A stretch of 64,000 nucleotides of DNA from an uncultured Bacteroides sp. (lineage in GTDB: Bacteria > Bacteroidota > Bacteroidia > Bacteroidales > JACABE01). A program made the position numbers and the translations under genes. The notes under the pieces were generated by a model. The model saw nothing but the letters and a program-made list of their open reading frames with translations. It did no database searches and was not told the origin of the DNA. The DNA is taken from contig CAZCBG010000008.1 in the NCBI GenBank assembly GCA_964496885.1, positions 4,354 through 68,353 on the forward strand, in the 5' to 3' direction. This document shows positions 2,726 through 48,520 of the stretch, in pieces (position 1 is the first letter of the stretch; the number at the start of each line of letters is the position of its first letter).

Positions 2726-2735
2726 AAAAATTATA

Positions 2736-3494: not shown

Positions 3495-3496
3495 TT

Positions 3497-4799: not shown

Positions 4800-4805
4800 T
4801 TTTAA

Positions 4806-4850
4806 AAAGGAAAAAGTATATTAATAAAAAATTAATATACTTTTTCCTTT
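4806..4850. terminator. 20-bp perfect inverted repeat, probable intrinsic terminator after the CYTH gene
   Basis: aaaggaaaaagtatattaat-aaaaa-attaatatactttttccttt, 7 bp after the stop codon. Confidence 0.7.
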
Positions 4851-4909
4851 ATTATGAATTAATTTTGTAATTCAATCTTTTATTTATTAATCTTTATTAT
4901 TTATTTACT

Positions 4910-5773: not shown

Positions 5774-5832
5774 TATCAATATTAGATAAATTTAATCATA
5801 TCTTTTTTTACATCATTAAGTATATTATTTCA

Positions 5833-7744: not shown

Positions 7745-8226
7745 AAAAAACAAATTCCCTTTAATTACAAAACCAGCTTAAGTTATTAATCCACACACAT
7801 AATTTACATTCCCATGTAAATAAGTAAGAATTACATTTATATATTTAATTTACCCTTAAAAGGCAAAACCAATCCTGCTTTTAATTTTCAAAATAATTAC
7901 CCCCGTCTTTACAAAATTTAATAGTGCTTGCAAAGAGATTTAAACCATTTAATAAGTGCTATTATAATAGCTTTGTCAGATTATCAACTGAATAAAAAGT
8001 CGTGATTCCTCATTTAAATTTCTAATTTACTTCACCCAATTTTAGTCTTACCGCAAATATAATATTTCATACTTCAATTTTGCTCCCTTTACATTTCGTT
8101 TTGCCAACAGCTTATTATTGTAGTAAAATGCAATAGAAGCATTCTAATTATCGCCACCCGTTAACTAATTTGATAGGCTGCAATATTAGGACACACAGCA
8201 TACATATTTATAATAACTTAATATAG

Positions 8227-27048: not shown

Positions 27049-27699
27049 ATGCTTATAAATCTTCAAAATCTCAAAGCTAAGATTCAAGAAATTAAATTAT
27101 CCATCAATAAAAATTATATTTTAAAAACATTTGGGATTCGCTTACTCCTATTAATGGGAGTTGGGGCCATTGTTTTATTTATATTAAGAAATAATTCTGA
27201 ACTGAAATACATGGTCCAACACGCTCAGTTTATATATGATTTTTATAGAACTATAATGTATTCAAGCTTATACATATTAAAATTTTTAGGATTTGATGCT
27301 TATATCTATTATTCCGAAACTATTTACAAATATGGAGTGTATGCAATGGGAATCGTTGGATCAAAGTCAATTTTTATGGGTATATCATGTATTGGAATGA
27401 CTTTAATGGGTGTATTTATTGCTTTAATCATTTCATATCCAGGAAAAATAAAACATAAATTATGGCTTATACCTAGTGGTTTAATTATCATTCAAATACT
27501 CAATATCGTACGAATGTGCACACTTACGATTTTAGTTCATAATGGATTCGTACATACATTTAATGATTACAATTTTTTAGGAATATTGAAATTTAATCAT
27601 CATGATCTTTTTAATTTTTTTATTTACATCATTATTTTTGGCATGTTTGTTTTTTACATTAATACATTTGGTTTAAAAAAACTTCAGAAAATGGGATAA
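27049..27699 (+). CDS. Exosortase/archaeosortase-family membrane peptidase
   Basis: Multi-TM protein with candidate triad Cys (ISCIG), Arg (LNIVR) and His (NHHDLF). ALIISYPG...KLWLIPSGL.II..LN..R matches the XrtF-like pattern. Lies next to a PIDGG protein. Confidence 0.8.
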   Translation: MLINLQNLKAKIQEIKLSINKNYILKTFGIRLLLLMGVGAIVLFILRNNSELKYMVQHAQFIYDFYRTIMYSSLYILKFLGFDAYIYYSETIYKYGVYAMGIVGSKSIFMGISCIGMTLMGVFIALIISYPGKIKHKLWLIPSGLIIIQILNIVRMCTLTILVHNGFVHTFNDYNFLGILKFNHHDLFNFFIYIIIFGMFVFYINTFGLKKLQKMG

Positions 27700-28016: not shown

Positions 28017-28637
28017 ATGAATCTATTTTTCCTCGTATTTGCAGCCCTATTCTCTATCATGAATCCTTTAGGTACCGTGCCTGTTTTTGTAGGATTAACC
28101 AAAGAAAAAACCAGAAAAGAAATTATTAATATCGCATTTTATGCTTCTTTGAACGTATTTATCATTCTTTTGATATCATTCTTTTTAGGAAAGTATTTGC
28201 TGATTTTCTTTGGCATCAGCATACAATCATTGAAGATTGCAGGGGGTATGATAATTACTACTTCCGGATTTGCATTGCTTAACGGTACATTTTCAAAGCA
28301 CAAAGGGATGAAAAAAGCTGTAAATGAAGATGCTTCCCTGCGATCGGACATTACCTTAACGCCTTTGGCCATTCCTATGCTGGCTGGACCAGGATGCATT
28401 TCGTTATTGATTACATATTATCAGGAATACAACAGTATCAGTGAAATGCTCATTTTAACATCCGCAATGCTTACGATTTCTGTAGTTATATTTTTTATAC
28501 TCAGAAGCTCTAATCTAATCGTTAAATATATGGGAGCATCCGGATTGAATGCATTATCACGGATAATTGGCTTTATTGTTATAGCTATTGGAGTAGAAAA
28601 TATTTTATCGGTTATACTTCTAATATTGAAAAAATAA
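28017..28637 (+). CDS. marC: MarC-family (NAAT) integral membrane protein
   Basis: LFSIMNPLGTVPVF, SLKIAGG, TPLAIPMLAGPG, LSRIIGFIVIAIGVE. Confidence 0.93.
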   Translation: MNLFFLVFAALFSIMNPLGTVPVFVGLTKEKTRKEIINIAFYASLNVFIILLISFFLGKYLLIFFGISIQSLKIAGGMIITTSGFALLNGTFSKHKGMKKAVNEDASLRSDITLTPLAIPMLAGPGCISLLITYYQEYNSISEMLILTSAMLTISVVIFFILRSSNLIVKYMGASGLNALSRIIGFIVIAIGVENILSVILLILKK

Positions 28638-28962
28638 TTTTCAAGTCTTCAAATTCTACATCAAAATTATTTGTAAAAGATAATTCATTACGTGAAATAA
28701 TGCTATTCATCCTTTTTGATAGATTTATTCTTTTTGATAGATTCTTTGACCATTCAGAAATTTTTTCAAAGGCTTTTATTAAAATAAGTGTCGTATTAAC
28801 GAACACGAAAATAATTGGAAAAATATGAAAATACTTCATTAAAAGGATGCTTAATGAATGGATATCAATTTGATAAACAAACAATGAGGATAAAATAATC
28901 ATTATAAGTATCGCTGTATAAAAAAACAGGTTGAAAAATAAGAAAAATTTCAGGGTTTTCAT
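28612..28962 (-). CDS. Hypothetical small membrane protein
   Basis: 116-aa ORF with two hydrophobic stretches, downstream of the GH13 gene; overlaps the marC 3' end by 26 bp. Confidence 0.4.
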   Translation of the reverse strand: MKTLKFFLFFNLFFYTAILIMIILSSLFVYQIDIHSLSILLMKYFHIFPIIFVFVNTTLILIKAFEKISEWSKNLSKRINLSKRMNSIISRNELSFTNNFDVEFEDLKIIFSILEV

Positions 28963-29060
28963 GGTTTTCGTTTAAAATTTATACAAAGTAAGCATATCTA
29001 TATTAACCTAATATGTAGTAAATATTAATTTTTTATGAAATCTTCCATTGCTATTTAAAG

Positions 29061-30680
29061 CTAAGAGGCATTGAGCTTATAAATTAAAGCTTCAAATGGA
29101 GACAATATAAGTTTATTTTCAATAAAATGTTCTTTTTCTGAAGTCTGTGATGAGAATAATATTTCAAATGCTCCAATTTCTTTAAGCTGAACGATTTTTT
29201 CGTGGGAACTGAAATTCAAAAATATACAGATAATTTCATCTTGATAAATTCTGGAGAAAGCAAAAGTGTCATCTTTACCTTTTTTCAGGAAACTAATTTC
29301 ACCTTTGTGCAAAGAGGGATGCTTTTTTCTGAGTTCAATAAGTGCTTGATAAATATTGAAAAGAGAATCCGTCTCATTCTCTTGAAACTGGACATTTGTT
29401 TCTTTATAATTTCTATGCACAGGCAACCATGGTTTTACAGTTGAAAACCCTGCAAATATATTTGTATTCCATTGCATGGGCGTTCTAGCTCCATCTCTGC
29501 CATTATAAATTGGCCAGTATTTTTTCCCTAAACTATCTTTAATACTTCGGTAAGGTATTCTGGAGTTTAGCATGCCAATTTCTTCGCCATAATAAATAAA
29601 AGGACTTCCTTTTAAAGTAAGTAGTAGCACTGCTTCTATTTTTGCTTTTTCAAGCTGGAATTTCCTTAAAGGATTTCTGTTGATGCTTCTTTTTAAATCA
29701 TGATTTGAAAGCACATAACAAGGCCAACCTCCATCTGGAATACTTGCATTCCACTTTTGAATACATTTATAATAAGCATTTGCATTCCACTTTTGGAAAA
29801 GCAAGGAAAAATCAAATGCCAGATGGATTCCTTTTTTACCATCGGCCAGATAGCTGGCAGAAAGCTTGGAGTTGCCGGGTGGCATTACATATACCTCTCC
29901 TACCAATACGCTTTCATCATATTTGTCAATCAATTTCCTGAGTTTTTTTACAATCTCATATGATTTAGGTCGATTTCTTGAATATTTATGTTGCTGAAGA
30001 AACGGAATATTAAGATTTAATGGATTGTTACGATATTTTTTATCCTTAACAATCATGTTTATCACATCTAACCTAAAACCATCTACTCCCAGCTCGAGCC
30101 AATACTTAATTTCTTCAAAAAAAACAAGCTGCATTTCTTTGTTGCGCCAGTTTAAGTCGGGTTGCTCTTTAAAAAATGAATGCAAGTAATATGCATTGGT
30201 TTTATCATCCAATTGCCAGGCAGTGTTTCCGAAAGAAGATTTCCAGTTATTTGGGGATTTTCCTTTTGGGGCAGTTTTCCATATATACCAATCCCGTTTG
30301 GGATTATCTATGGACGATTTTGATTCGAGAAACCATGGATGCTGATCAGAAGTATGATTCATAATCATATCCATAATTACTTTAATATTTTTGGAATGAG
30401 CAATTTCTAAAAGATTTTTAAAATCCTCCAGCTTGCCATATTCGGGGTTGATGGATGTATAGTCTGAAACATCATAACCATAATCTTTATTGGGCGATTG
30501 ATAAATAGGAGAAAGCCAGATCGCATCTATGCCTAAATGCACTAAATAATCAAGTTTGGAAACAATACCCTTTATATCACCAATACCGTCATTGTCACTA
30601 TCATAAAAACTTCGGGGATAAATATGATAAATTACGCCATGCTTCCACCATATCCATTCATTTTCTTTTTTATTATTCAT
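29061..30680 (-). CDS. GH13 alpha-glucosidase/oligo-1,6-glucosidase family
   Basis: YHIYPRSFYDS..DGIGD, catalytic GFRLDV, GEVY and SNHD, plus RDGARTPMQW. Confidence 0.93.
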   Translation of the reverse strand: MNNKKENEWIWWKHGVIYHIYPRSFYDSDNDGIGDIKGIVSKLDYLVHLGIDAIWLSPIYQSPNKDYGYDVSDYTSINPEYGKLEDFKNLLEIAHSKNIKVIMDMIMNHTSDQHPWFLESKSSIDNPKRDWYIWKTAPKGKSPNNWKSSFGNTAWQLDDKTNAYYLHSFFKEQPDLNWRNKEMQLVFFEEIKYWLELGVDGFRLDVINMIVKDKKYRNNPLNLNIPFLQQHKYSRNRPKSYEIVKKLRKLIDKYDESVLVGEVYVMPPGNSKLSASYLADGKKGIHLAFDFSLLFQKWNANAYYKCIQKWNASIPDGGWPCYVLSNHDLKRSINRNPLRKFQLEKAKIEAVLLLTLKGSPFIYYGEEIGMLNSRIPYRSIKDSLGKKYWPIYNGRDGARTPMQWNTNIFAGFSTVKPWLPVHRNYKETNVQFQENETDSLFNIYQALIELRKKHPSLHKGEISFLKKGKDDTFAFSRIYQDEIICIFLNFSSHEKIVQLKEIGAFEILFSSQTSEKEHFIENKLILSPFEALIYKLNAS

Positions 30681-30682
30681 TA

Positions 30683-33358
30683 TTATTGAAGCTCAACATC
30701 TTTTAAAAACTGATCGAGTATGGATGATTTATTATAGTTCTTCGAACGTTCGATAGCAGCTTTTTTAAATGATTTCTGTATTGAAATATCATTAAAGTAA
30801 TAAATAATATTGGATGCCATTTCATCGGTATTAGAAACAAGAAATCCATTTTTATTATCTTCAATAATATCTTTAGGTCCCTTAGTATTGTATGCAATTA
30901 CAGGCAATCCACAACTCAATGCCTCCAATACAACACAACTGAAAGTATCAAATTTTGAGGGCAAAATCAATAAATCAGCAGACGAATAAATCCCGGGTAA
31001 TTTATCATGATCCATCCAACCTAAATAGATTGCTTCTGGTAAAGCTTTTTTTAATTCTTGTTCTGCCGGGCCATTACCTGCAATAACAATTTGCAAATCA
31101 TGAATTTCGGCTTTTGCTCTTTTGTAAATTTCAGCCAATTCCATCACGCCTTTCTCTTTACTCAATCTTCCTGCAAAAAGTAAAACAGCTTGCTGTTGAT
31201 CAATATTAAAAAGTTTCTTTTTTGCAGTTTTCTTGGGGATGAATATATCTTCAACCCAATGGGCAGTATTGAAGACTCTGCTGGATTCAAAACCCATTTT
31301 TGAACTTGTCAGCCATTTTTGTTGATCTGAATTAAGCACAAATAAATTATCAAACGCATTGTAATACATTCTCAGCAGTCGGGTGAAACGGTTTAAATTA
31401 CTTCTGTCGATATTTAATACTTTTTTTGCAAACATAATCCAATCGGTATGAATATAAAAATACGCTTTTACAGAATACGCATTTTTGAGATAAATGGCAG
31501 CCAGGCCCATTAAACCTTCGGTAGAGCATATAATTCTGTCGTATTCGTTTTCATGAAAAAGTTTATGAATTTCAAGATAATTCGGCACTCTCATAGTTTG
31601 ATCTTTGTACATTGGCAAACTAAACTCAGCCAATGGTTTTATAACAATTAAGTGATCTGTTGCTTGAATATTATTGCTACATACAAGAATATCAATGGGT
31701 AAATTTCTTAATTTTATTTCCTGAAGCATTGATTGTAATACCATAGAAACACCATTGTTGTCATCAAATGTATCTGTAAGCCATAACATCCTTTTAGGAT
31801 GCTGAAGTTTGCCGATATTTTCGGAAAATGTCTGAAGCAAAGGCCTGACATTATACAATACCTTAGAACTGGCATAATTTGCAGCCAGTATCAAAGCTGA
31901 GGCTAAAAAGGGAAATGAAAGACCATCAAATAAATCAGATAAATTTGGATTACTCATCCTCTTATTTTTATCTTTGTTAAAATACTTGGTTTCATTTTCA
32001 ATATATGCTCTGAATTCGCTGGGCAATTCAAATTTATCGATCAGCATGTTCACATCAAAGTCTTTAAATTTACCTTGTAGTTGGAATTTATCAATTTTTT
32101 TCACCAATCTTTTAAAAAGTAAAGCATTTAGTTTATCGCTGATCGAAAAAACTGATTTCTTATAAATTTCAACAACATTTTCAGGATCATTTTTAGTAGT
32201 TTCGGCAATACTCATTGCATCTTTAAAAATAGGTTTGTACACCTTAGGCACTAATATTTTTTTAGACAATGAGGGGACTTTCCCTTGAAAACAATTGTGA
32301 AACAGCTCAATAAAGTTCATGGTAACTCTATGTCTTCTCAACTCAGCAAATCCATTGGAAACCAATAAAGCTATCAGTTTATCCTGTGAAGTCCCTTTAT
32401 GTAATAGAATTCTCAGTAAACCCGGATCATTTCTATTGAGTGCTATCTGGAATACATAATCCAAAAAAGCTACGGTAAGTTTTTCACTATTATGATGGGA
32501 ACCATAAGGAGCCATATTTCCATCTTTGATTGCCTGTAATGCAAGTTCAGATGGTTTAAAATCTTTTAGTTTTACATTTAACTGAGGAACATACAACAAG
32601 GTACCTGTTAATCCCGAGAAAAAACCCATGTGACTGTCAGAACCTCCCGACATTGATTTTTTATAAGGATCTTTACAATATCGGTTGGCTGGAATTCCAA
32701 ACTCTTTAGATAATTCATCAATTTTTTCGGGTGTTATACTTTCCAACCAATTTTTAACCAGCATATTTTGCCAGCTATCTCTTTGTCCATTCAAAACTTC
32801 AAATCGTTCAAAAACCAAAGCCATTTTATTAAAAAAAGCCAAATTAGGAATGCCAGATGTGTTATAATGATACAATGGATGGGCCCAAATAGTAGGGATG
32901 TCATTTTCTAAGGCATAATCCTGAAAAGCATAGATGTTTTTTCTAAGTTTATTGAGCATTTTTTCCTGACTTGGATTAAATCCATACGTTAAAACATGAA
33001 TTCCAATATTAAAATCAGGTACTGTACAACTGAATTCTGCAGCAGTAAGTATATCAAAACCTTTATCCTGCATTTCGTAGCAAGATCTGGCATTGTTATG
33101 ATTGGTAATTGTAAAAGCTGAGCAATCGTTTTGTTTAAGTGTTTTTATCAATGTTTCCGACTTTAACCATGTTTCTGGCAAATTCAGTATTCGGCCCAAT
33201 AACTCATCAGGAACATCACTGTTGTAATCATGACAATGCAAGTCTATCCTCAACGTATCGTCAATAGGGTACTTTGCAAATTGTTGCGTTTGAAAAATAT
33301 TCAATTCATTGATTAATTCTTTTTGAAAAGAATGCTCTTTTAAAGATAATTGCTTCAT
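30683..33358 (-). CDS. PHP-phosphoesterase-GT4 glycosyltransferase fusion
   Basis: PHP motifs DLHCH, TITNHN, AAEF, WAHP, GGSDSH; GT4 motifs TDTFDDNNGV, FAGRLSKEKG, PSKFDTFSCVVLEALSCGLPVI. Confidence 0.88.
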   Translation of the reverse strand: MKQLSLKEHSFQKELINELNIFQTQQFAKYPIDDTLRIDLHCHDYNSDVPDELLGRILNLPETWLKSETLIKTLKQNDCSAFTITNHNNARSCYEMQDKGFDILTAAEFSCTVPDFNIGIHVLTYGFNPSQEKMLNKLRKNIYAFQDYALENDIPTIWAHPLYHYNTSGIPNLAFFNKMALVFERFEVLNGQRDSWQNMLVKNWLESITPEKIDELSKEFGIPANRYCKDPYKKSMSGGSDSHMGFFSGLTGTLLYVPQLNVKLKDFKPSELALQAIKDGNMAPYGSHHNSEKLTVAFLDYVFQIALNRNDPGLLRILLHKGTSQDKLIALLVSNGFAELRRHRVTMNFIELFHNCFQGKVPSLSKKILVPKVYKPIFKDAMSIAETTKNDPENVVEIYKKSVFSISDKLNALLFKRLVKKIDKFQLQGKFKDFDVNMLIDKFELPSEFRAYIENETKYFNKDKNKRMSNPNLSDLFDGLSFPFLASALILAANYASSKVLYNVRPLLQTFSENIGKLQHPKRMLWLTDTFDDNNGVSMVLQSMLQEIKLRNLPIDILVCSNNIQATDHLIVIKPLAEFSLPMYKDQTMRVPNYLEIHKLFHENEYDRIICSTEGLMGLAAIYLKNAYSVKAYFYIHTDWIMFAKKVLNIDRSNLNRFTRLLRMYYNAFDNLFVLNSDQQKWLTSSKMGFESSRVFNTAHWVEDIFIPKKTAKKKLFNIDQQQAVLLFAGRLSKEKGVMELAEIYKRAKAEIHDLQIVIAGNGPAEQELKKALPEAIYLGWMDHDKLPGIYSSADLLILPSKFDTFSCVVLEALSCGLPVIAYNTKGPKDIIEDNKNGFLVSNTDEMASNIIYYFNDISIQKSFKKAAIERSKNYNKSSILDQFLKDVELQ

Positions 33359-33387
33359 ACTATTAATATTATTTTAATAATCCTTTG

Positions 33388-33454
33388 CAAAATAATAATT
33401 TATTAAGCAAAATACAATGGTTTGAATATTAATTTATTGTGAATTTATTATTAA
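33388..33454 (-). promoter_or_regulatory. Candidate Pho-box-like array plus variant -7 element for the PHP-GT4 operon
   Basis: Minus strand: ttaataa (33454), ttcacaa (33443), ttaatat (33432); TTATTTTG starts at 33395, 37 (26+11) bp after 33432. Confidence 0.55.
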
Positions 33455-33481
33455 ATTATTATGCAAGCAATAAATATTATT

Positions 33482-33537
33482 ATAATGTTTAAATAATATT
33501 GCCTTAATGTAGGTAAGAATTATTTATATTTATTTTG
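33482..33537 (+). promoter_or_regulatory. Candidate Pho-box-like array plus variant -7 element for the third PIDGG protein
   Basis: ataatgt (33482), ataatat (33493), ttaatgt (33504); TTATTTTG at 33530, 26 bp after the last repeat start. Confidence 0.5.
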
Positions 33538-33565
33538 CAAAAGATAAAAAAAATATGATAACACA

Positions 33566-33799
33566 ATGAGAAATATAATTTTTACTTTATTAATTATAAT
33601 GGGAAGTATTGGTTTATTTGCACAACCTATACCTCCGGGTGGTGGTGTAGCTGGAGCAGGACATGGATTAAGTGGCAATCAGGGTGGCAATGGAGCTCCT
33701 ATTGATGGTGGTTTCAGTATATTAATACTCTTGGGAGCAATTTATGGAGCAAAAAACATTAAAAAAATAAATAAAAATGATGAAAATATAAATGCATAA
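33566..33799 (+). CDS. Small PID-CTERM-like protein, divergent third member
   Basis: Signal peptide (LFA-Q), then QPIPPGGGVAGAGHGLSGNQGGNGA, then PIDGG, FSILILLGAIYGA and a basic tail. Confidence 0.82.
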   Translation: MRNIIFTLLIIMGSIGLFAQPIPPGGGVAGAGHGLSGNQGGNGAPIDGGFSILILLGAIYGAKNIKKINKNDENINA

Positions 33800-34038
33800 A
33801 GCGATGAATAGTAAATAAACAATCTGAAAATCATGAGAATCAGATATATAACAAGATAATAGCCATGAGTATTTTTTATTACTATTACATCGCTTTTAAA
33901 ATTTTAAACAAATATAAATGAAATATATTTTCTTCAATTACAATTCAAATAAATTATTGTAATTATTTGACTACCTGCCCTGTTTTTTTTCAAAACAATC
34001 AATAACAAATCCTTTGTTATAATTCTCAAACGAAAGCT

Positions 34039-34064
34039 AAACTCCCTATTTAGGGAGTTTTTTA
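34039..34064 (+). terminator. Intrinsic terminator in a long intergenic region
   Basis: aaactccct-attt-agggagttt followed by ttt. Confidence 0.7.
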
Positions 34065-34165
34065 TACTTTAAAATTTACAATATTGAATAATGAAAGATT
34101 TCTCTAAGAAACAATTAATATTAAATATTAATTAAACTATTACTATTTAATAAGTTAAAACAAAA

Positions 34166-34360
34166 TTAATCTTCCCATATTGCAACTAGCAAGAATTCAT
34201 CCGGATGTTTGGAATTATTTTTATCAAAAACATAAACTAAACCTCCCCTCCTATAGAAAAAATACATATTACTTTCACTCACTAAATTGCAATGAGCATC
34301 TTGCAAAAACTTTTTACTATATTTTTGACCTTTTAAGAGCAGATTATCAATTACATTCAT
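34166..34360 (-). CDS. Possible small hypothetical protein
   Basis: 64-aa ATG-started ORF with protein-like composition; no recognisable motif. Confidence 0.25.
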   Translation of the reverse strand: MNVIDNLLLKGQKYSKKFLQDAHCNLVSESNMYFFYRRGGLVYVFDKNNSKHPDEFLLVAIWED

Positions 34361-34496
34361 ATAAAAATATTTTTACAAAAATAATATATTACAAAGTCAT
34401 CATAATTATTGTTAGAATAATAAATCATTAATTTTTAGTTTTAAATCACTGATTTTTATAAAAAATTTTTAGTCAAATATGTTTAAGACCAAAATG

Positions 34497-34552
34497 GTAA
34501 CATTAAATTAAAATAAACGAAACATTGAATAAGTTTAAGTTTCATAAATTTG
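34497..34552 (+). promoter_or_regulatory. Candidate Pho-box-like array plus -7 element for the GT4-dedA operon
   Basis: gtaacat (34497), ttaaaat (34508), gaaacat (34519); TAAATTTG at 34545, 26 bp after the last repeat start. Confidence 0.6.
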
Positions 34553-34695
34553 GAATGGTTCTAAAAATAATATTATTATAAAATTTACCCTGATATATCA
34601 GGCATTAAACAAAAGAACAATAAAATAAAATAAAATAATAGCTTGTGTATTCATTAAAAAAAATCAATCCATATTAAATTAAAATTAAATAACTT

Positions 34696-35736
34696 ATGAA
34701 AGTAAATGTTTGTTCTGAGACTAAAATACTCAACATGAAAGGCGAAGGTGTAAATACTGCATTTTTAAATTGTATAGAATTAATTAATGAAAACAAGAAT
34801 GACGAAGTGTTGATTAACAATGAAGGTGTTGGCGACATCATGCACAGTCATTCTTATGGACCCTATTATTTTTTGAGAGGTTTAAAATACAAAGGCAGAA
34901 AAGTTTTTACAGTTCATGTTATACCTGATTCGATCAAAGGTTCAATTCCGGCAGCAAATTTGCTAATGCCTTTTGTAAAGTGGTATTTTAAACAAGTTTA
35001 TTCCTATGCCGATGTTTGCATTGCTATAAGCCCTATGGTAGAAAAAGTGATTAAAGATTTGGGGGTAAAAACCAATATCGTCGTTATGAACAACCCTCTG
35101 ATGGTCAATAACTGGAAAAGAACAACTGAGCTTCGCGAAAAAGGAAGAGCAATGTTAGGACTTAAAGAATATGATTTTTGTGTACTAGGTGTTGGGCAAT
35201 TAGAAAGCAGAAAAGGTTGTGCCGATTTTATAGAAGTAGCCAGACAAATTCCTAATGCGCAGTTTCGTTGGATAGGAGGCAGACCATTCGGAAAGATGAC
35301 CGAGGGTATCAAAAGTTTAGAAAATCAAATAGCAGCTGCTTCACCCAATGTAAAATTTTCAGGATTATTTTCATTGGAAGATATGCCTAGTTTGTATGCT
35401 GCTGGTGATATGTTTCTATTTCCTTCCTACCAGGAAAATTGTCCTTTGGCTCCTTTGGAAGCAGCTGCATCAGGAATGCCTGTTGTTTATCGTAATATTA
35501 AAGAATATGATTTATTATACAATCATGAATACTTAAAAGCAGATAATAATGATGAGTTTGTAGCTGCCGTAAACAGACTAATGGTTGATGATCATGCCTA
35601 TATAAGAGGACTGGAAATTTCTTCATGCTTGATTACTCAATTTGAGAAAAACAATATTCGTCAAAAATTAATGAATGTGTATAAAGATTTACTGAATTCT
35701 CAAACAGATATTCAACTGATTGAACAGTATGCCTAA
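34696..35736 (+). CDS. GT4 glycosyltransferase, CpoA/LafB-like (diglycosyl-diacylglycerol synthase type)
   Basis: HVIPDSIKGSIPAANLLMPFVKWYFKQVYSYAD resembles the CpoA-type segment; also GVGQLESRKG and PSYQENCPLAPLEAAASGMPVV. Confidence 0.85.
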   Translation: MKVNVCSETKILNMKGEGVNTAFLNCIELINENKNDEVLINNEGVGDIMHSHSYGPYYFLRGLKYKGRKVFTVHVIPDSIKGSIPAANLLMPFVKWYFKQVYSYADVCIAISPMVEKVIKDLGVKTNIVVMNNPLMVNNWKRTTELREKGRAMLGLKEYDFCVLGVGQLESRKGCADFIEVARQIPNAQFRWIGGRPFGKMTEGIKSLENQIAAASPNVKFSGLFSLEDMPSLYAAGDMFLFPSYQENCPLAPLEAAASGMPVVYRNIKEYDLLYNHEYLKADNNDEFVAAVNRLMVDDHAYIRGLEISSCLITQFEKNNIRQKLMNVYKDLLNSQTDIQLIEQYA

Positions 35737-36334
35737 TGAACTAATCATTTTTATTGGGAATTATGGTTATATTGCCATTTTTTTGCTTGTCTTCTCTCAG
35801 GAAATAGGGATTCCAAATCCGGTACCCAACGAATTGGTTCTTATGTTTGCCGGCTTCCTTTCGATAAAAGAAATGCTATCTATACCATTTGTAATACTCA
35901 CAGTTATATTAGCTGATTTTGCAGGTACAATTATTCTTTATGCTGTATTTTATTTTTTCGGTGATTATATTGTAAATCATTTACCCCGTTGGATACCTTT
36001 ATCCAAACAAAACATTGACAAATTTTCTAAAAGAATTTCACAAGGTGGGAAATTGTATATTTATATGGGCCGTTTAACACCTTTTATCCGAGGATATACT
36101 TCAGTTGTGAGTGGTTTATTAAACATCAAACCCAGGGTATTTTTACCCATCGCACTTATTTCGGCATCTACCTGGAGTATTCTATGTGTAATGACAGGGA
36201 GATTATTTGGAAATTATTTAAACTTTTCAGTAGACAATACGGGTAATTTTAAATATATTATCATTTCAGTTATATTGATAACCTTGATGATTGTTTTGAT
36301 TTTTAAATATATCCATAAACGTACGGCCATTTAA
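35720..36334 (+). CDS. DedA-family membrane protein
   Basis: IGIPNPVPNELVLMFAGFL and GRLTPFIRG motifs; likely ATG at 35729 overlapping the GT4 stop. Confidence 0.9.
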   Translation: MNSMPNELIIFIGNYGYIAIFLLVFSQEIGIPNPVPNELVLMFAGFLSIKEMLSIPFVILTVILADFAGTIILYAVFYFFGDYIVNHLPRWIPLSKQNIDKFSKRISQGGKLYIYMGRLTPFIRGYTSVVSGLLNIKPRVFLPIALISASTWSILCVMTGRLFGNYLNFSVDNTGNFKYIIISVILITLMIVLIFKYIHKRTAI

Positions 36335-37298: not shown

Positions 37299-37754
37299 AT
37301 GACAACTGAAGACATACTTTTAAAATACAAACCACAGAAAGACAATTTAATACAGATACTTCATGAGATTCAGGATGCTCAACCTCAAAATTATTTACCG
37401 GAAGAGGAGCTGATGAAAGTAGCCAAACACCTCAATATTAGCATGAGTGCAGTTTTTGGTGTTACAGGATATTATTCAATGTTTAGCACTATTCCTCGTG
37501 GTAAATACATTCTTCGTCTCTGTGAATCACCCATTTGTAATATGTTTGGCTCCAAAAATATTGCAAATAAGCTAAAAGAACTTTTACAGATCAATTTTAA
37601 CGAAACAACCCCCGATGGGATGTTTACACTCGAAATGAGCGAGTGCCTGGGTTTATGCGGTAATAAACCTTCAATGATGATTAATCAACAAACCATTACT
37701 GGATTAAACGAAGATATGATCGAATTGATAATTAATGAATTGCGTATCAAATAA
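37299..37754 (+). CDS. NuoE/HydC-like [2Fe-2S] subunit of an NAD-dependent formate dehydrogenase
   Basis: LIQILHEIQ, GVTGYYSMF, LCESPIC, ECLGLC. Confidence 0.9.
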   Translation: MTTEDILLKYKPQKDNLIQILHEIQDAQPQNYLPEEELMKVAKHLNISMSAVFGVTGYYSMFSTIPRGKYILRLCESPICNMFGSKNIANKLKELLQINFNETTPDGMFTLEMSECLGLCGNKPSMMINQQTITGLNEDMIELIINELRIK

Positions 37755-37765
37755 AAACAATAAGC

Positions 37766-39007
37766 ATGATAAGCGAAACCAGGGTAGCACTTAAAAATTT
37801 AGGAAAGATAAATCCGGAAAATATAGATGATTATATTCTCAACGGAGGCTATCTGGCATTAAGAAAAGCCATGGACATGGAGCCCTCTGCTGTTATTGAT
37901 GAAATCGAACAATCGGGTTTAAGAGGCAGAGGTGGTGCTGGTTTTCCTACCGGAATTAAAAACCGTTATACTTCTCTATCCTGCGATGAATGTGAAAGAT
38001 ATGTAATATGCAATGCCGATGAAGGAGAACCCGGCACATTCAAGGATCGTATCATTATGGAAAATGATCCTCATTTGCTGATTGAAGGTATGTTGATCAG
38101 TGCATATGCAATTGGAGCTTCTAAAGGATATATCTATATCAGGGCAGAATACTATTTATCCCTCGAAAGAATTAAAAAAGCCATAGAAACAGCATATTCC
38201 AGTGGATATTTGGGTAAAAATATTATGGAATCCTATTTTAATTTTGATCTTGAAATAAAATTGGGTGCAGGCTCCTATCTCTGTGGCGAAGAGCTTACCC
38301 TCATGGAATCATTGGAAGGTAAAAGAGGTTATCCTCGTATAAAACCACCTTTCCCTGCCGAAAAAGGATTATTTGGAAAGCCTACTTTAATAAATAATGT
38401 AGAAACGCTTTCTCATTTCCCCTCTATCCTTATCAATGGTGCTGAATGGTATAGCAGCATGGGTAATGAAAAATCAAAAGGTATCAAAATATTTACAATC
38501 AGCGGAAATGTAAACAATCTCGGTTATTTTGAAGTGGAACTAGGCGTTAGCTTAAGAGCATTAATTTTTGACCTTGCTGGTGGCATTCAATACGGTAAAA
38601 AATTTAAAGGCGCATTGTTGGGTGGAGCTGCCGGAACTTTTGTGGACGAAACCATGTTGGATGCAAACATGGGATACGATAGCCTGAAAGCAATGGGGGC
38701 AACGCTGGGTTCAGGGGCTATCATTGTGTTAGACGAAGATCAAGCGGTTTACGAGATATTACTCAGCGTGTTGAAGTTTTTTAAAAACGAATCCTGCGGA
38801 AAATGTGTTCCATGCAGAATTGGATGCCTGCAATTGTTGCTGTTGATGGACAAACTCAAAAAAGAAAAAAACAAAAAAGAAATACTTCAGGAACTATTGT
38901 CTCAAGCTGAAATGATGGCTAAATCATCCCTCTGCCCTCTCGGGCAATCACCCATATTACCAATAAGAAGTGCCATCAGGTATTTTGAAAATGAATTGAT
39001 AAACTAA
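37766..39007 (+). CDS. NuoF-like FMN/NADH-binding diaphorase subunit (short form)
   Basis: SGLRGRGGAGFPTG, CNADEGEPGTFKDR, GAGSYLCGEE, ESCGKCVPCRIG...CPLG. Confidence 0.93.
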   Translation: MISETRVALKNLGKINPENIDDYILNGGYLALRKAMDMEPSAVIDEIEQSGLRGRGGAGFPTGIKNRYTSLSCDECERYVICNADEGEPGTFKDRIIMENDPHLLIEGMLISAYAIGASKGYIYIRAEYYLSLERIKKAIETAYSSGYLGKNIMESYFNFDLEIKLGAGSYLCGEELTLMESLEGKRGYPRIKPPFPAEKGLFGKPTLINNVETLSHFPSILINGAEWYSSMGNEKSKGIKIFTISGNVNNLGYFEVELGVSLRALIFDLAGGIQYGKKFKGALLGGAAGTFVDETMLDANMGYDSLKAMGATLGSGAIIVLDEDQAVYEILLSVLKFFKNESCGKCVPCRIGCLQLLLLMDKLKKEKNKKEILQELLSQAEMMAKSSLCPLGQSPILPIRSAIRYFENELIN

Positions 39008-39065
39008 AAAGTATAAGAACAATTTTTCTGACAAGACAAATTTTACAAACTAGCAATATACAAAA

Positions 39066-41789
39066 ATGGCAGAAAGCGTAAAAATTACAATTGACGGCAG
39101 ACAGATTGAAGCTGAAAATGGAGCCAATTTACTGCAGCTTGCTAAAGACAACGGAATTCAGATTCCAAGTTTGTGTTATCACCGTAAGCTTACACCTACC
39201 GGAGCCTGTAGACTGTGTTTGGTTAAAATAAAAGGAATGAACGGTCTCATTGCATCCTGCACTGTTCAGATTAAAGAAGGTATGGAAGTCATTGCTTTTG
39301 ACCAGGAACTGGAAGCCACCCGCAGGTATTTGCTCGATTACTTAGTTGCTGAACACAACGAAGCCAATGATGATACGCATGCTGATGAGTTGATGGCATT
39401 GCTCAAAAGATATGATCTGGAAAATGTTGACAACAGAAAATATCCATCGGTTTGGAAATTAATGAATTATCCTATTGACAACAGTTCTCCGGTTTTGACC
39501 TACGATGCTTCAAAATGCATCAAATGCTTTCGTTGTATAAAAGCCTGCGACGAAGTTCAGGGAAAAAATGTACTTTCTTTTACCGACAGAGGAATAGCAT
39601 CCTTTATTATTGCCGGATTCGGAAAATGGAGTGAATCGGAATGCGACGGATGTGGCGAATGTATTCAACTATGCCCAACGGGTGCAATTGTCGAAAAGCC
39701 TCATCGTGATGAAATCAAACTTCCTAAAATTGACAGCAAGGTTAAAACTACCTGTCCTTATTGTGGTGTGGGTTGTCAGATTGAAATGTTGGTACAGGAT
39801 GGAAAAATTCTAAGATCAAACGGCATTGAACAGCAATGGCCCAATGATGGCAGGCTATGTATTAAAGGACGCTTCGGATATGATTTTATACAAAGTAAAG
39901 AAAGATTAACCCATCCACTGATTAAAAAAAATGGAAATTTTGAAAAAGCAAGCTGGGATGAAGCCCTTGATTTAATCGCGACTAAATTTAATGAAACGAT
40001 AGAAAAGTATGGAAATGAAGCATTGGCTGGTTATTCTTCAGCAAAATGCACCAACGAAGACAATTATATCTTTCAAAAATTCATCAGATGTGTTGTTGGC
40101 AACAACAATGTAGATTATTGCACACGTTTGTGTCATGCTTCAACCGTTACAGCCATGCTTCGTTCTATTGGCGATGGAGCAGGAAGCAATTCAATTGAGG
40201 ATTTCGAAACAACAGATTGCCTATTGGTATGTGGTAATAATATTATTGAAACCCATCCAATTACGGCAACCTATGTAAAACGAGGCATCAGCAAGGGAAT
40301 GCAGGTAATTATCATCGATCCGAAATGGACTCCTCTGGTTAAACATGCCAAAATTTGGCTACAGCCACGTTTAGGAACAGACGTAGCATTGTTAAACGGA
40401 ATGATTCATTCAATTATAAAGGATGATTTAATTGACGAAGAATTCATACTATCGAGACTGGACGGTGGCATGGAAGCTTTTGAAGAATTAAAAAAAATAT
40501 GTCAGAAATACACTTCCCAATATGTTGAAGCAATCACAGGAGTTCCAAAAAGCAAAATGATAGAAGCTGCAAGAATATATGCAACTTCTCCCACTGCGAT
40601 GATAGCTACCGGAATGGGAATGAGCCAACAGCTAACAGGCACCAATAATGTATTTTCATTGATTAACATGATGCTGATTTGCGGACAGATTGGCAAGGAA
40701 AGAGCCGGTATAGATCCACCACGTGGGCAGAATAATGTGCAAGGAGCCACTGATGTTGGGGCTTCACCCATTAATTATCCGGGTTATATTCCTATCGGCA
40801 ACGACGAGAACAGAAAAAAAGTAGCTGGCATCTGGGGAGTTCCATTTGAAACCTTATCTTCAAAACCTGGTTTGACTACCGTAGAGATTGTTAAGGCAGC
40901 ATATGAAGGAAAAGTAAAAGCTTTGTATATCATGGGTGAAAATCCTATGCTAACAGACCCCAATCTGAATCACGCAAAAGCAGCTTTTGAAAAACTTGAT
41001 TTTTTGGTAGTTCAGGATATTTTCCAAACAGATACAACACCTTATGCTGATGTAATATTGCCAGCTGCATCCTTTGCTGAAAAAAACGGAACTTTTGTCA
41101 ATAGCGACCGAAGGGTTTTAAGGGTAAGAAAAGTGGTTGATTCGCCAGGGGAAGCCCGTCAGGACTGGGAAATAATTCAGGAAATTGCCAAGCGAATGGG
41201 AAAACCCATGACAGCTTACAAGGATGAATCCGAAATATTTGATGAAATTACAAAGGTTACACCAATGATGGGGGGAATTAGCTACGAGCTTATCGAACAA
41301 CAGGGTATCCAATGGCCTTGTCCCGATAAAAATCATCCCGGAACTCCTACCCTTTTCCTTGAAAAATTCAATACAGCCAACGGTAAAGCCAAGCTTAACC
41401 CAGTGGATTACTTACCTCAAAATGAAAAAACTTCGTATGAATATCCTTTTCTTTTAAATTCCGGAAGAATTTTATTTCAATACCATTCATCCACCATGTC
41501 TCGTAAAAACGAGGCACTCAATGCTTTTGCCAATAAATCCTATGTGTTGATGCACTCCAATGATGCTGCTAAAAATAAACTGGAGGATGGATGCAGTGTA
41601 AAATTAACTTCAGCAAGGGGCGAATTGCAAACCACTTTAAGAATCAGTGATGAAGTGCTAGAAGGAGAATTATTTATGCCTTGGCATTTCAGCGAATCAG
41701 CTGTTAATAATCTAACCCGGGATGAACTGGATCCTCATTCTAAAATTGCAGCTTTTAAACTCAGTGCCTGCAAAGTAATATTGATTTAG
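39066..41789 (+). CDS. fdhF: Mo/W-bisPGD formate dehydrogenase alpha subunit (Cys-ligated)
   Basis: N-terminal 2Fe-2S and two 4Fe-4S motifs, TTCPYCGVGC...LCIKG, active site DYCTRLCHAST, RGQNNVQG. Confidence 0.92.
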   Translation: MAESVKITIDGRQIEAENGANLLQLAKDNGIQIPSLCYHRKLTPTGACRLCLVKIKGMNGLIASCTVQIKEGMEVIAFDQELEATRRYLLDYLVAEHNEANDDTHADELMALLKRYDLENVDNRKYPSVWKLMNYPIDNSSPVLTYDASKCIKCFRCIKACDEVQGKNVLSFTDRGIASFIIAGFGKWSESECDGCGECIQLCPTGAIVEKPHRDEIKLPKIDSKVKTTCPYCGVGCQIEMLVQDGKILRSNGIEQQWPNDGRLCIKGRFGYDFIQSKERLTHPLIKKNGNFEKASWDEALDLIATKFNETIEKYGNEALAGYSSAKCTNEDNYIFQKFIRCVVGNNNVDYCTRLCHASTVTAMLRSIGDGAGSNSIEDFETTDCLLVCGNNIIETHPITATYVKRGISKGMQVIIIDPKWTPLVKHAKIWLQPRLGTDVALLNGMIHSIIKDDLIDEEFILSRLDGGMEAFEELKKICQKYTSQYVEAITGVPKSKMIEAARIYATSPTAMIATGMGMSQQLTGTNNVFSLINMMLICGQIGKERAGIDPPRGQNNVQGATDVGASPINYPGYIPIGNDENRKKVAGIWGVPFETLSSKPGLTTVEIVKAAYEGKVKALYIMGENPMLTDPNLNHAKAAFEKLDFLVVQDIFQTDTTPYADVILPAASFAEKNGTFVNSDRRVLRVRKVVDSPGEARQDWEIIQEIAKRMGKPMTAYKDESEIFDEITKVTPMMGGISYELIEQQGIQWPCPDKNHPGTPTLFLEKFNTANGKAKLNPVDYLPQNEKTSYEYPFLLNSGRILFQYHSSTMSRKNEALNAFANKSYVLMHSNDAAKNKLEDGCSVKLTSARGELQTTLRISDEVLEGELFMPWHFSESAVNNLTRDELDPHSKIAAFKLSACKVILI

Positions 41790-46697: not shown

Positions 46698-47630
46698 TTA
46701 AAGCGTTTTTTTATAAGTAGCAATATGACGGTGCTTTTTAATATCATAAATATCGTTGATAGTCACCAAAATACCTGTTTCCTCTACTTCGCCAAAATGG
46801 TGATTAATGGCCGTACCAAATGTTTTCATCGTTGATGATAAATTCATATACGCATTCACGAGTGGAGGAATGGATTCATTAAATCTTCTAACATTTTTCA
46901 TTAAAATCCTGTAATCCTCATCGTAATTATTTTCATGAAAAGTATTAGTAAGCTCCTCGATATCTGTAACTAAATTTAATGCCCGGTGAGGATATACCAG
47001 ATTTTCATGATCGGGAAAATATTTTTTCAAGAAGAAAAGGATCATGTCTCTTGCTGTTATATTAAAACGAGGATACATGGTTATTTTTCCAAAAAAATAT
47101 TTCATTTCAGGATATTCTAAGGTAATTGCACCCAGACCATCCCATAAATTATCCAGAGAAAAAATTCCTTTGCGAATATTATAAGTTGGTTGATAATTAG
47201 GTTGTACCCACGATCTTCCCAATTCGATGGTATAAGGTAAATAATCACGGTTAAAATGCTCAGAAAAATGAAATAGTTCAGCAGTAGCACTAAAAGGTGC
47301 ACCATTATTATCAAATTTGATTTTATCACCATTTATAAAACGGTAGCCACCGATAATTTCCTGTTCTTCGGGATTCCAAACCAATAATTGTTGGTAAGGA
47401 ACTTCTGAAGTATCATATTCATCAATATCTACTTCCTTGCCAGTACCACCCCCTGCATCTCTAAAACTCATTTCACGTAAACGGCCTATTTCGAGCATAA
47501 TATTGGGAGAATTATGGTAGGTTATGATATAAATTTCCTTGTTGCCATTATTGGTTTTTCTTAAAAATTTATCTTCAGTCAATTCATTTTTAATCAATCG
47601 CTTATCAATAGGTGAGATTATGTTTTTCAT
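46698..47630 (-). CDS. glsB: GNAT N-acyltransferase, OlsB/GlsB-like amino-lipid synthase
   Basis: EIGRLREMSFRDAGGGTG..DIDEYD, IIGGYR, IELGRSWV, LDNLWDGL; paired with a PlsC-type gene upstream of mraZ. Confidence 0.75.
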   Translation of the reverse strand: MKNIISPIDKRLIKNELTEDKFLRKTNNGNKEIYIITYHNSPNIMLEIGRLREMSFRDAGGGTGKEVDIDEYDTSEVPYQQLLVWNPEEQEIIGGYRFINGDKIKFDNNGAPFSATAELFHFSEHFNRDYLPYTIELGRSWVQPNYQPTYNIRKGIFSLDNLWDGLGAITLEYPEMKYFFGKITMYPRFNITARDMILFFLKKYFPDHENLVYPHRALNLVTDIEELTNTFHENNYDEDYRILMKNVRRFNESIPPLVNAYMNLSSTMKTFGTAINHHFGEVEETGILVTINDIYDIKKHRHIATYKKTL

Positions 47631-47662
47631 AATAATTATTTTTCTTGTTAAGTAATTTGATT

Positions 47663-48520
47663 CTATTTAAAAAAACTTGTATCGGATTTATTTTCAAGTG
47701 AATATACATGATTCTTTAACTTTTCAGCCCATTGTTGATCTGTAAATTCTTTGTCAAAGATAAGGTATGAAATTGGTTTCCCCAAAATAATTTTAATTGT
47801 TTTATTTTTCTGCTTATACATTTCATCAACCAGATAAAGCATTTCGAAATTAACTTTTAAACCGATCTTTTCACGTATCATGGCCAGGTTATAAAAAAAA
47901 TTGGAATTCATACCATCAATAAATACAGGAATGATATCTCTCTGGTACTGTTTGGCCTTGGTTATAAATGTTTTTTTCCATTCAAGGTCTTTGATAATAC
48001 CTCCTTTTTGTTTACGGGAAACCAATCCAGCCGGAAAATACAACATCATTGAATTTGACCTAAAAGCCTGCTCCAGCATCTGAATATTTTCTGTATTTTT
48101 ACCATGTTTATTAATAGGTACAAAAATTGGTTTAAGCTGTTGAAGGTTCATCAACAGATCATTAACAGGGAAAAGAAAATCTTTTCTACAGTTTCCAATT
48201 CTAGAGATCAATGCCAGACCATCCATTCCCCCTAAAGGATGATTGGAAGCAATGATATACCTTCCATCTTTCGTAATATTTTCTAAGCCAACTACTTGTA
48301 TATTTACACCAAAATCCTCTAAAATTGCTGTTGCAAAATCAGCACCAATTTTGTCACGATTTTTGAAAATGGCTGCATTTAATTCATCCATATGAATCAC
48401 CTTTTTTAAGTAATTCATTACAAATCGGGGAATAAATTTTAAGATTTTAGGGTTTTTACCGCCTATAATCCGCTCTAAATCAAGGAATTTTTCCGATATT
48501 TCGGACTGATGATTTTCCAA
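47663..48520 (-). CDS. glsA: PlsC-family O-acyltransferase, OlsA/GlsA-like
   Basis: HX4D motif NHPLGGMDG; FPAGLVSR. Confidence 0.72.
   Translation of the reverse strand: MENHQSEISEKFLDLERIIGGKNPKILKFIPRFVMNYLKKVIHMDELNAAIFKNRDKIGADFATAILEDFGVNIQVVGLENITKDGRYIIASNHPLGGMDGLALISRIGNCRKDFLFPVNDLLMNLQQLKPIFVPINKHGKNTENIQMLEQAFRSNSMMLYFPAGLVSRKQKGGIIKDLEWKKTFITKAKQYQRDIIPVFIDGMNSNFFYNLAMIREKIGLKVNFEMLYLVDEMYKQKNKTIKIILGKPISYLIFDKEFTDQQWAEKLKNHVYSLENKSDTSFFK

Follow-up and report, generated by a model that had tools for sequence, protein, structure and literature searches.

The replacement of phospholipids by phosphorus-free lipids is a major survival route of microorganisms under phosphorus scarcity in lakes and oceans, and it is now tracked in metagenomes through the genes plcP and agt. 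In SAR11, Agrobacterium and Pseudomonas this system consists of a separate calcineurin-like (Metallophos_2) phosphoesterase, PlcP, and the glycosyltransferase (GT) Agt. Pho-regulated pairs of PlcP and a glycosyltransferase are already known (PMC4796936), and one occurs, under the heading of lipid remodelling, in the Pho regulon of Flavobacterium johnsoniae (PMC8115612), which makes the view of Bacteroidota as little known for glycolipid remodelling, taken in a first-pass annotation of the DNA considered here, a dated one. Here we analyze a stretch of 64,000 nucleotides (nt) from an uncultured Bacteroides sp. (contig CAZCBG010000008.1 of assembly GCA_964496885.1; hereafter the window), in which a single gene encodes an 891-amino-acid (aa) protein combining a PHP phosphoesterase domain with a glycosyltransferase of family GT4, followed by a gene for a GH13 α-glucosidase. 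Tentatively, and with slightly less confidence than would amount to an even chance, we read the fusion as a Pho-regulated phosphoesterase-glycosyltransferase that would turn phosphorus-containing lipids into phosphorus-free α-glucosyl lipids. The closest homologues of the fusion (97% identity) are found in metagenome-assembled genomes (MAGs) of Bacteroidales, the sequence itself stems from freshwater/lake metagenome runs, and all open reading frames (ORFs) at the locus are real. The features that carry the argument are the following:

30683..33358, minus strand: gene of the PHP/helical/GT4 fusion, 891 aa (ORF list, Pfam, homologue alignment, AlphaFold)
32489..33256, minus strand: PHP phosphoesterase domain, residues ~35-290 (metal ligands and fold)
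31799..32488, minus strand: basic all-α region, residues 291-520 (secondary structure, charge, hydropathy)
30686..31798, minus strand: GT4 domain (GT-B, retaining), residues 521-891 (Pfam, Foldseek)
29061..30680, minus strand: gene of the GH13 α-glucosidase, 539 aa, predicted to be cytoplasmic (Pfam, PDB profile matches, conservation of the locus)
33427..33454, minus strand: Pho-box-like element, TTAATA-N5-TTCACA-N5-TTAATA, 69-96 nt 5' of the PHP-GT4 ATG
33382..33395, minus strand: promoter-like box TTATTTTGCAAAGG, ~30 nt 5' of the PHP-GT4 ATG

Like the PlcP and Agt pair, the fusion brings together a metal-dependent phosphoesterase and a retaining nucleotide-sugar glycosyltransferase, is a predicted member of the Pho regulon and keeps genomic company that includes pst genes. 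A distant full-length homologue (L091) lies directly behind a gene for UDP-glucose 6-dehydrogenase, the enzyme that makes the donor for glucuronosyl-diacylglycerol, with an alkaline phosphatase gene nearby. Unlike PlcP, however, the phosphoesterase half is a PHP (βα)7-barrel, both predicted activities are joined in one polypeptide through a basic helical region of 230 residues, the acceptor domain of the GT4 finds no match among Agt or MGS models, and a GH13 gene is predicted to be co-transcribed. Relative to the separate Pho-regulated PlcP and glycosyltransferase the PHP-GT4 fusion is new: no description of PHP-glycosyltransferase fusions was found in the literature searched, and its PHP half carries no database annotation.

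The N-terminal domain is an intact PHP phosphoesterase, as judged from its fold and its nine metal ligands, and the first-pass annotation was right in seeing it fused to a GT4. In an alignment of 23 homologues (57-88% identity) the ligands H41, H43, H87, E108, H121, H160, D241 and H243 are invariant and the ninth, D48, is nearly so (at least 90%), giving the complete set of the PHP superfamily (HxH, D, H, E, H, H, DxH); a remote clade of ~800-aa proteins retains these columns as well. AlphaFold models residues 70-290 of the N-terminal 522 residues mostly with a predicted local distance difference test (pLDDT) score >90, and the model shows the distorted (βα)7-barrel of the superfamily, the top seven PDB matches by Foldseek being PHP domains without exception (E 1e-5 to 8e-3). 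The best of them is RNase AM 7ug9 (E=1e-5, target template-modelling (TM) score 0.60); further PHP matches are 9etk, PolC 3f2b/3f2c, 3o0f/3e0f (BAD_1165) and 2yb1 (Cv1693). A PDB search with a profile including the remote relatives also returned PHP proteins only (2yb1, 3e0f, 1m65), but with weak E-values of 0.08-0.85, so that the fold could be settled only by structure prediction. Pfam gives no match to the N-terminus of the fusion even at E=10, leaving the domain short of the gathering threshold for PHP (PF02811; COG0613 branch), and Pfam and NCBIfam together report nothing on the N-terminal 522 residues, that is, no family assignment by hidden Markov models. Remote relatives do show sub-threshold Pfam matches to PHP and PHP_C (20-24 bits vs a cut-off of 26.4), and one of them bears the NCBI name ‘PHP domain-containing protein’. 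Given that Pfam finds no Metallophos match in the N-terminal domain either, it lacks the calcineurin-like signature of PlcP, of which it can be at most a functional analogue. RNase AM/YciV (TrpH) and Cv1693 (COG0613) provide the best folds (7ug9, 9etk, 3o0f, 2yb1) and share the full His/Asp/Glu ligand set, but identity is only 11-15%, the Pfam PHP model does not score the domain of the fusion, and these enzymes are stand-alone proteins acting on nucleotides or RNA, whereas here the domain is fused to a glycosyltransferase.

The C-terminal domain scores above the Pfam cut-offs for Glycos_transf_1 (112 bits) and Glyco_transf_4 (33 bits), and in the full-length AlphaFold model (pLDDT 82, predicted TM score 0.81) residues 521-891 adopt a standard GT-B fold, in line with CAZy family GT4. 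The motif of TDT...NGV style that had been noticed earlier is present as LWLTDTFDDNNGVS, in which D529, T530, N535, G536 and V537 are invariant among the 23 homologues. At the EX7E donor site the sequence reads D804-x7-E812 (FDTFSCVVLE); both residues are invariant, the first being Asp and not Glu. Foldseek neighbors of the domain are BshA, MshA, GlgM, PimA/PimB' and SPS (TM 0.75-0.82, 15-18% identity), and since these cover soluble as well as lipid (PimA) acceptors, comparison of folds does not discriminate between acceptor types. A GT4 joined to a phosphatase is also found in SPS/SPP fusions and in MshA together with its phosphatase (SPS 6kih, TM 0.77; MshA 3c4q, TM 0.79). In those systems, however, the phosphatase is of the HAD type and C-terminal, or a separate protein, while here the corresponding family models remain below cut-off and the neighbors of the fusion are lipid and Pho genes. 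The region between the two domains (residues 291-520) is all-helical in the AlphaFold model (pLDDT 42-86) and basic, with a median pI of 9.5 and a net charge of +9, whereas the PHP domain is acidic; it contains a conserved hydrophobic helix, DGLSFPFLASxLILAAN, at residues ~478-503. Foldseek found no significant fold match for this middle region, only insignificant ones to helical bundles and F-BAR-like folds.

The GH13 gene starts 2 nt past the stop codon of the fusion on the same strand, which places it in the same operon. Its product matches Pfam Alpha-amylase with 462 bits and, in the PDB, best matches Halomonas HaG (3wy1, E=2e-133) and Xanthomonas XgtA (6aav, E=9e-126). With the motifs GFRLDV, GEVY, NHD and QPDLN, read directly from the translation, it shares the catalytic Asp/Glu/Asp regions and the QPDLN of these GH13_23 enzymes and of the oligo-1,6-glucosidase type, and by its sequence it would be an oligo-1,6-glucosidase/GH13_23 α-glucosidase; translational coupling to a PHP-GT4 gene, however, has not been described for HaG or XgtA. 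No signal peptide is seen at its N-terminus when the translation is read by eye. To describe the gene neighborhoods, neighboring ORFs were clustered in 80 genome loci of the fusion and, for the remote clade, in 80 metagenome loci (L093-L172). GH13 is the dominant and most conserved partner of the fusion: it stands directly 3' on the same strand in 54 of the 80 genome loci (50 of the 69 with enough downstream sequence), with a gap of no more than 33 nt or an overlap in 42 of these 54 pairs. An α-glucosidase in this position is consistent with an α-glucosyl product; alternatively, it may signal a soluble α-glucoside. The interval 30683-36334, to which the locus had been confined before, does contain the ORFs named for it but cuts off the GH13 gene (29061-30680) of the PHP-GT4 operon. 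The earlier interpretation overlooks this strongest partner of the fusion and leaves it unexplained.

Upstream of the fusion gene, three TTNAYA half-sites are arranged as direct repeats with 11-bp phasing, which TRF reports as a period-11 array at 33427-33463. Since the window has a low-score AT-rich tandem array about every kb, TRF matches alone carry no weight, and it is the conserved, motif-defined repeat that counts. When the upstream regions of close relatives are aligned, a conserved block AAATTCACAWTAAWTTAATATTCAAA is followed by the promoter-like box TTATTTTGCAA; the repeat element is conserved in L007-L011, and its 26-nt core is unique in the window. The sequence ATTATTTTGCAA is kept in the window, in L007-L009 and in L011, with a one-base variant in L010, and the same promoter-like box is found 5' of the gene for a PID-CTERM protein (inverted repeat I3). 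The box resembles the -7 element of Bacteroidota (Bacteroidetes consensus TAnnTTTG) and is a putative element of this kind. The dimer TT[ACT]A[CT]A-N5-TT[ACT]A[CT]A, searched with the close relatives L007-L013 excluded, lies 5' of 17 of 72 distant orthologues, concentrated at -58 to -132, as against 0.53±0.74 (maximum 3) in 300 dinucleotide shuffles and against 9 of 286 other genes with real intergenic upstream regions (Fisher p=1.9e-7 vs the orthologues). Of 12 pst or porin O/P operons, 5 carry it before their first gene (p=7e-5); L017 has a four-repeat array 5' of porin O/P, L053 has one 5' of pstC, and in L020 an MGS-like GT4 gene has a Pho-box-like site of its own. Further dimers of the window are situated at 8207-8223 (+), ~260 nt 5' of a purple-acid-phosphatase-like ORF as counted from its first start codon, at 4821-4837, 5' of an unannotated 287-aa ORF, and at 29023-29039 (-), 5' of a 116-aa ORF downstream of GH13.

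The geometry of the repeat is that of OmpR/PhoB-family sites, and its half-site is close to the Bacillus PhoP box, TT(A/T/C)ACA. It thus has what a Pho box should show in sequence, namely at least two half-sites with ~11-bp phasing, a position upstream of the promoter and occurrence in common with pst. Because the motif is enriched 5' of the orthologues and of pst and porin O/P genes and is conserved in relatives, we read it as the candidate Pho box of the PHP-GT4/GH13 operon, and not of the second, CpoA-like GT4 gene and the dedA gene coupled to it, which follow on the opposite strand. The first-pass annotation had seen a phased repeat at both promoters, which is correct for PHP-GT4, with its conserved 11-bp repeat at 33427-33454. 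A search upstream of the CpoA-like gene, in the window and at five homologous loci, gave no dimer; what the window has there is merely low-complexity (AAATA)n, of a sort that recurs about every kb throughout. Whatever the enzyme chemistry, TTNAYA-N5-TTNAYA can be tested in these lineages as a candidate Pho box.

Database searches yield >1300 matches to the fusion, almost all of 880-900 aa and annotated merely as ‘glycosyltransferase’, and relatives are present in 413 GTDB species, with full-length identities of 57-66%. The best 80 loci belong to environmental Bacteroidales, Cyclobacteriaceae, Flavobacteriales and Leptospirales/Spirochaetota, besides single MAGs labelled Desulfobacteraceae and Chitinophaga; cultivable carriers include Reichenbachiella sp. 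MALMAid0571 and Dysgonomonas sp. HGC4. An exhaustive HMMER search with the N-terminal 520 residues retrieved 670 cluster representatives, including the second clade of ~800-aa PHP-GT4 fusions, in which names are attached to just two records, Desulfamplus (Desulfobacterota) and a fragment from Planctomycetota, the rest being metagenome contigs. PstS, PstCA, PstB and/or porin O/P are encoded near the fusion in seven of the 80 genome loci (L012, L015, L017, L053, L055, L079, L084), in divergent as well as co-directional orientation and in different lineages, and in L004 a PstS-like binding protein is encoded divergently upstream. Seven loci have either a CpoA-like GT4 or one alignable end to end with α-monoglucosyl-diacylglycerol (DAG) synthase, four to five have DedA and three a DAG-kinase-family lipid kinase; PlsC-type acyltransferases are also present. 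The 80 loci of the remote clade have neighbors of their own:

DUF2334: 18 loci, immediately upstream in 16
Methyltransf_24: 11 loci, upstream
phosphatidylserine decarboxylase: 9 loci, immediately upstream in 8
Radical SAM: 9 loci
PhoH-like: 6 loci
PstB: 6 loci
PhoU: 4 loci
Lnt (identified by eye): 4 loci
OlsF-like aminolipid synthase: 3 loci

DUF2334 has a deacetylase-like fold, and from its operon the remote clade may be supposed to make a lipid with a modified head group, possibly one with an amino sugar. Two links drawn from the window alone have gained real, if indirect, support in these comparisons. One is the link to phosphate limitation, through the repeat held in common with pst and porin O/P promoters and through pst, PhoU, PhoH and alkaline-phosphatase neighbors, and the other is that to membrane lipids, through MGS-like and CpoA-like GT4, DedA, DAG kinase, PlsC, phosphatidylserine decarboxylase, OlsF-like and Lnt neighbors. 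Together they keep the logic of a phosphoesterase plus a glycosyltransferase the best reading of the locus, and the freshwater-lake habitat counts in its favor.

In the mechanism that we propose, the operon of PHP-GT4 and GH13 would be switched on at phosphate starvation by an OmpR/PhoB-type activator binding to the 11-bp phased TTNAYA repeats. Its first product would be a peripheral-membrane bifunctional enzyme, which the basic helical region might anchor on the anionic inner membrane. There the trinuclear-metal PHP domain would remove a phosphate or phospho-head group from a glycerolipid or sphingolipid, candidate substrates being phosphatidic acid, a phospholipid or a ceramide-phosphate lipid, and the retaining GT4 would transfer an α-glucosyl residue from a nucleotide sugar to the freed diacylglycerol or ceramide, so that a phosphorus-free glycolipid would take the place of a phosphorus-containing lipid. 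The GH13 enzyme could serve either in the turnover of the α-glucosyl(-glycerol) head group or in a hydrolytic supply of glucose that uses no inorganic phosphate (Pi), and the CpoA-like GT4 and DedA, a separate module without a Pho box, may extend or flip such lipids. Given that characterized PHP enzymes are mainly phosphomonoesterases or nucleases, a phosphatidic-acid phosphatase is at least as plausible as a phospholipase C. Similarly, ceramide may take the place of DAG as acceptor, since it is the substrate of the Bacteroides GT4 that falls among MGS enzymes (PMC9692976). What is directly observed for the fusion is thus which domains it has, how far its operon is conserved, the enrichment of the motif and the make-up of the neighborhoods, whereas control by Pho, attachment to the membrane, the lipid nature of the substrate and the α-glucosyl nature of the product are inferred.

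A number of observations weigh against this proposal. The MGS model NF049988 matches the donor half of the fused GT4 only, with 53 bits vs an equivalog cut-off of 400, and the acceptor half (residues 520-705) has no NCBIfam or Pfam match at E=10, which lends no support to the earlier designation of this GT4 as being of monoglycosyl-DAG-synthase style. Its structural neighbors BshA, MshA, GlgM and SPS take soluble, mostly anionic or phosphorylated acceptors. On the phosphoesterase side, we know of no PHP enzyme that acts on lipids, and the nearest folds found by Foldseek (RNase AM, pAp phosphatases) are nucleotide-directed. No clear transmembrane segment is predicted, the maximum of 19-residue hydropathy in the middle region being 1.5. 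Lipid neighbors and Pho neighbors are each confined to a minority of the loci, while GH13, conserved above all other partners, is a hydrolase of soluble sugars that would be futile beside a synthase if it cleaved the product of the latter. Finally, same-sample metatranscriptomes contain no reads over the locus.

Several of these points would be met if the operon made and used a soluble α-glucoside. The GT4 would then glucosylate a small phosphorylated acceptor such as a sugar phosphate, glycerol-3-phosphate or inositol phosphate, the PHP domain would dephosphorylate the product, in the manner of SPS with SPP or of MshA with its phosphatase, and the operonic GH13 enzyme would hydrolyze or transglucosylate the free α-glucoside. 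It is established that PHP enzymes are typically phosphomonoesterases; among the nearest GT4 structures, the acceptors of MshA, GlgM and SPS are phosphorylated and that of BshA is L-malate, the strongest partner, in 50 of 69 loci, is precisely a cytoplasmic α-glucosidase of GH13_23 type, and glgA and glgC adjoin a remote homologue in L090. However, the freshwater habitat speaks against an osmolyte role, the SPS, MshA and GlgM models all remain below cut-off, and the association with Pho boxes and pst, the lipid neighbors (psd, OlsF-like, Lnt, DagK, MGS- and CpoA-like GT4, DedA) and the conserved basic region with its hydrophobic helix would all stay unexplained, for which reasons we consider a soluble glucoside unlikely, if well worth keeping in mind. 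Remodelling of another glycoconjugate at the cytoplasmic face, such as the lipid A/core of lipopolysaccharide (LPS) or an undecaprenyl-phosphate-linked intermediate, with PHP removing a phosphate and GT4 adding a sugar in order to save phosphorus, would suit Pho regulation. Many GT4 enzymes do act on LPS or undecaprenyl-diphosphate intermediates, and models of PglH, PglJ and an LPS GlcNAc-transferase match weakly, but far below their cut-offs and mostly in the donor half; likewise, the DedA family includes the undecaprenyl-phosphate transporter UptA, whose NCBIfam models weakly match the DedA protein of the window (69 bits). As no LPS, O-antigen, Wzx or Wzy genes recur beside the fusion and the GH13 partner would have no explanation, this alternative appears improbable.

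Alternatively, the PHP domain might act independently of the GT4 on nucleotides, either the nucleoside diphosphate (NDP) by-product or a pAp-like compound, relieving product inhibition and recycling Pi, as would befit a member of the Pho regulon. Its closest structures are indeed the nucleotide-directed RNase AM/YciV and the 3',5'-bisphosphate nucleotidase Cv1693 (2yb1), but identity to those enzymes is 11-15% with target-normalized TM of at most 0.6, we know of no precedent of a bacterial fusion of a glycosyltransferase with an NDPase, and the lipid genes of the neighborhoods would again be left aside; we therefore hold a nucleotide substrate to be decidedly improbable. A role in capsule or exopolysaccharide (EPS) synthesis, in which PHP would be a CpsB-like protein-tyrosine phosphatase on an EPS glycosyltransferase and possibly be tied to an exosortase/PID-CTERM system, is brought to mind by the genes for an XrtX/Y-like exosortase and a PID-CTERM protein in the window, and CpsB-type tyrosine phosphatases are PHP proteins (PMC2777267). 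Models of PEP-CTERM- and XrtY-associated glycosyltransferases match as well, though weakly, the exosortase-associated ones with 44-76 bits vs cut-offs of at least 400. Yet no Wzc-type kinase, Wzx/Wzy or exosortase recurs beside the fusion in the 160 loci, and the PHP fold is of the RNase AM/COG0613 type with no CpsB structure among the significant matches, which makes a role in capsule synthesis very improbable indeed.

If the lipid-directed phosphoesterase-glycosyltransferase proposed above is correct, carriers of such an enzyme would be freshwater and marine Bacteroidota, Leptospirales and the lineages of the second clade, and plcP/agt surveys would so far have missed a large group of Bacteroidota and Leptospirales that are abundant in fresh water and in the sea, since databases say only ‘glycosyltransferase’ and Pfam misses the phosphoesterase half. 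PHP chemistry would extend to lipids, the locus would offer a natural example of a channelled two-step exchange of lipid head groups, and the obligate α-glucosidase partner would indicate a new cycle of glycolipid head groups. It is tempting to go further and to see here a PHP enzyme that would be the first to act on lipids, with one polypeptide under Pho control stripping a membrane lipid of its phosphate or phospho-head group and at once glycosylating what is left, as a channelled, non-homologous replacement of PlcP and Agt; in this full form we consider the claim doubtful, though not far-fetched.

The CpoA-like GT4 gene and its dedA partner belong to the surroundings of the operon rather than to the operon itself. 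The remaining features of this part of the window are:

34696..35736, plus strand: gene of a CpoA/BgsA/IagA-like GT4, 346 aa, a separate neighboring unit (NCBIfam end-to-end alignments)
35720..36334, plus strand: gene of a DedA/VTT membrane protein, 204 aa (Pfam VTT_dom)
28612..28962, minus strand: small hydrophobic ORF, 116 aa, 3' of GH13, with its own Pho-box-like dimer at 29023-29039 (-)
33566-33799, plus strand: gene of a secreted, Gly-rich PID-CTERM protein, 77 aa, between both GT units
27049-27699, plus strand: gene of an exosortase-family protein, 3.5 kb past GH13 (XrtX and XrtY models best, below cut-off)
34039-34060, plus strand: terminator-like hairpin with a 9-bp stem and T-run, in the gap 5' of the CpoA-like gene
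34166-34360, minus strand: 64-aa ORF in the 900-bp gap 5' of the CpoA-like gene

The 346-aa protein carries the same Pfam GT4 domains as the fusion (Glycos_transf_1, Glyco_transf_4) and aligns end-to-end with the NCBIfam models IagA/BgsA (NF053513) and Dgs (NF049987), with 148 and 122 bits; since the equivalog cut-offs of 460 and 500 bits are not reached, it is a distant relative of CpoA/BgsA/IagA and not an equivalog. It shares size, GT4 architecture and full-length model alignment with CpoA, BgsA, IagA and alDGS, but the Firmicute systems lack such coupling to DedA; in view of the ceramide-using GT4 of Bacteroides mentioned above, its acceptor, too, may be ceramide or DAG. More than 1100 homologues exist, for which the Joint Genome Institute (JGI) uses a cpoA-type name. 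The dedA gene shares 8-17 nt with the 3' end of the GT4 gene, according to which start codon is taken, and its product exceeds the cut-off of Pfam VTT_dom (55.5 vs 33.9 bits). The earlier description of a CpoA/LafB-like second GT4 coupled to dedA is thus upheld, with the model alignment below cut-off, and the GT4-DedA pair is a genuine and widely conserved module of Bacteroidota. The pair overlaps in the same way in L089, where genes for an OmpR-type regulator, a patatin, PPK2 and Ppx-GppA surround it. Though no Pho-box-like dimer was found upstream there, such company hints that GT4-dedA may be linked to phosphate or polyphosphate in that genome. The notion of divergent operons is right insofar as there are two units on opposite strands, but these are 1.3 kb apart, with the PID-CTERM gene and the hairpin between them, share no repeat and are neighbors in only seven of the 80 loci. 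Being adjacent to the fusion in few lineages and devoid of the repeat, the GT4-DedA pair is best regarded as a separate candidate for a glycolipid synthase and flippase.

Homologues of the 116-aa ORF occupy the same position in five close relatives, and it has no Pfam match. The PID-CTERM and exosortase genes do not recur beside PHP-GT4 in other loci. An Rfam scan of the region from 28.5 to 37.4 kb gave no credible match, and a scan for sigma-70 promoters stayed at the level of shuffled sequence (47 found vs 49.6 expected). Elsewhere the window contains a phosphate-acquisition block (414-6660 and 8480-13942) with pstC, pstA, pstB and phoU (414-4204), a CYTH protein (4332-4799), a CHAD protein (5833-6660) and an 1820-aa purple-acid-phosphatase/Metallophos-like protein (8480-13942). 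At 46698-48520 (-), genes for an Acetyltransf_5 protein (N-acyl amino-acid synthase type) and an Acyltransf_2 protein adjoin each other, a pair typical of the synthesis of glycine or ornithine aminolipids in Bacteroidota and hence a second phosphorus-free lipid route in the window. Three successive ORFs at 37299-41789 (+) resemble, by eye, NuoE, NuoF and a 907-aa subunit of the molybdopterin oxidoreductase/formate-dehydrogenase type. Coding tandem repeats comprise a Lys/Glu-rich one at 53292-53516, inside the ORF 50992-53673, with periods of 6-60 and up to 33 copies, and a 39-nt repeat of 2.7 copies at 706-812, inside pstC.

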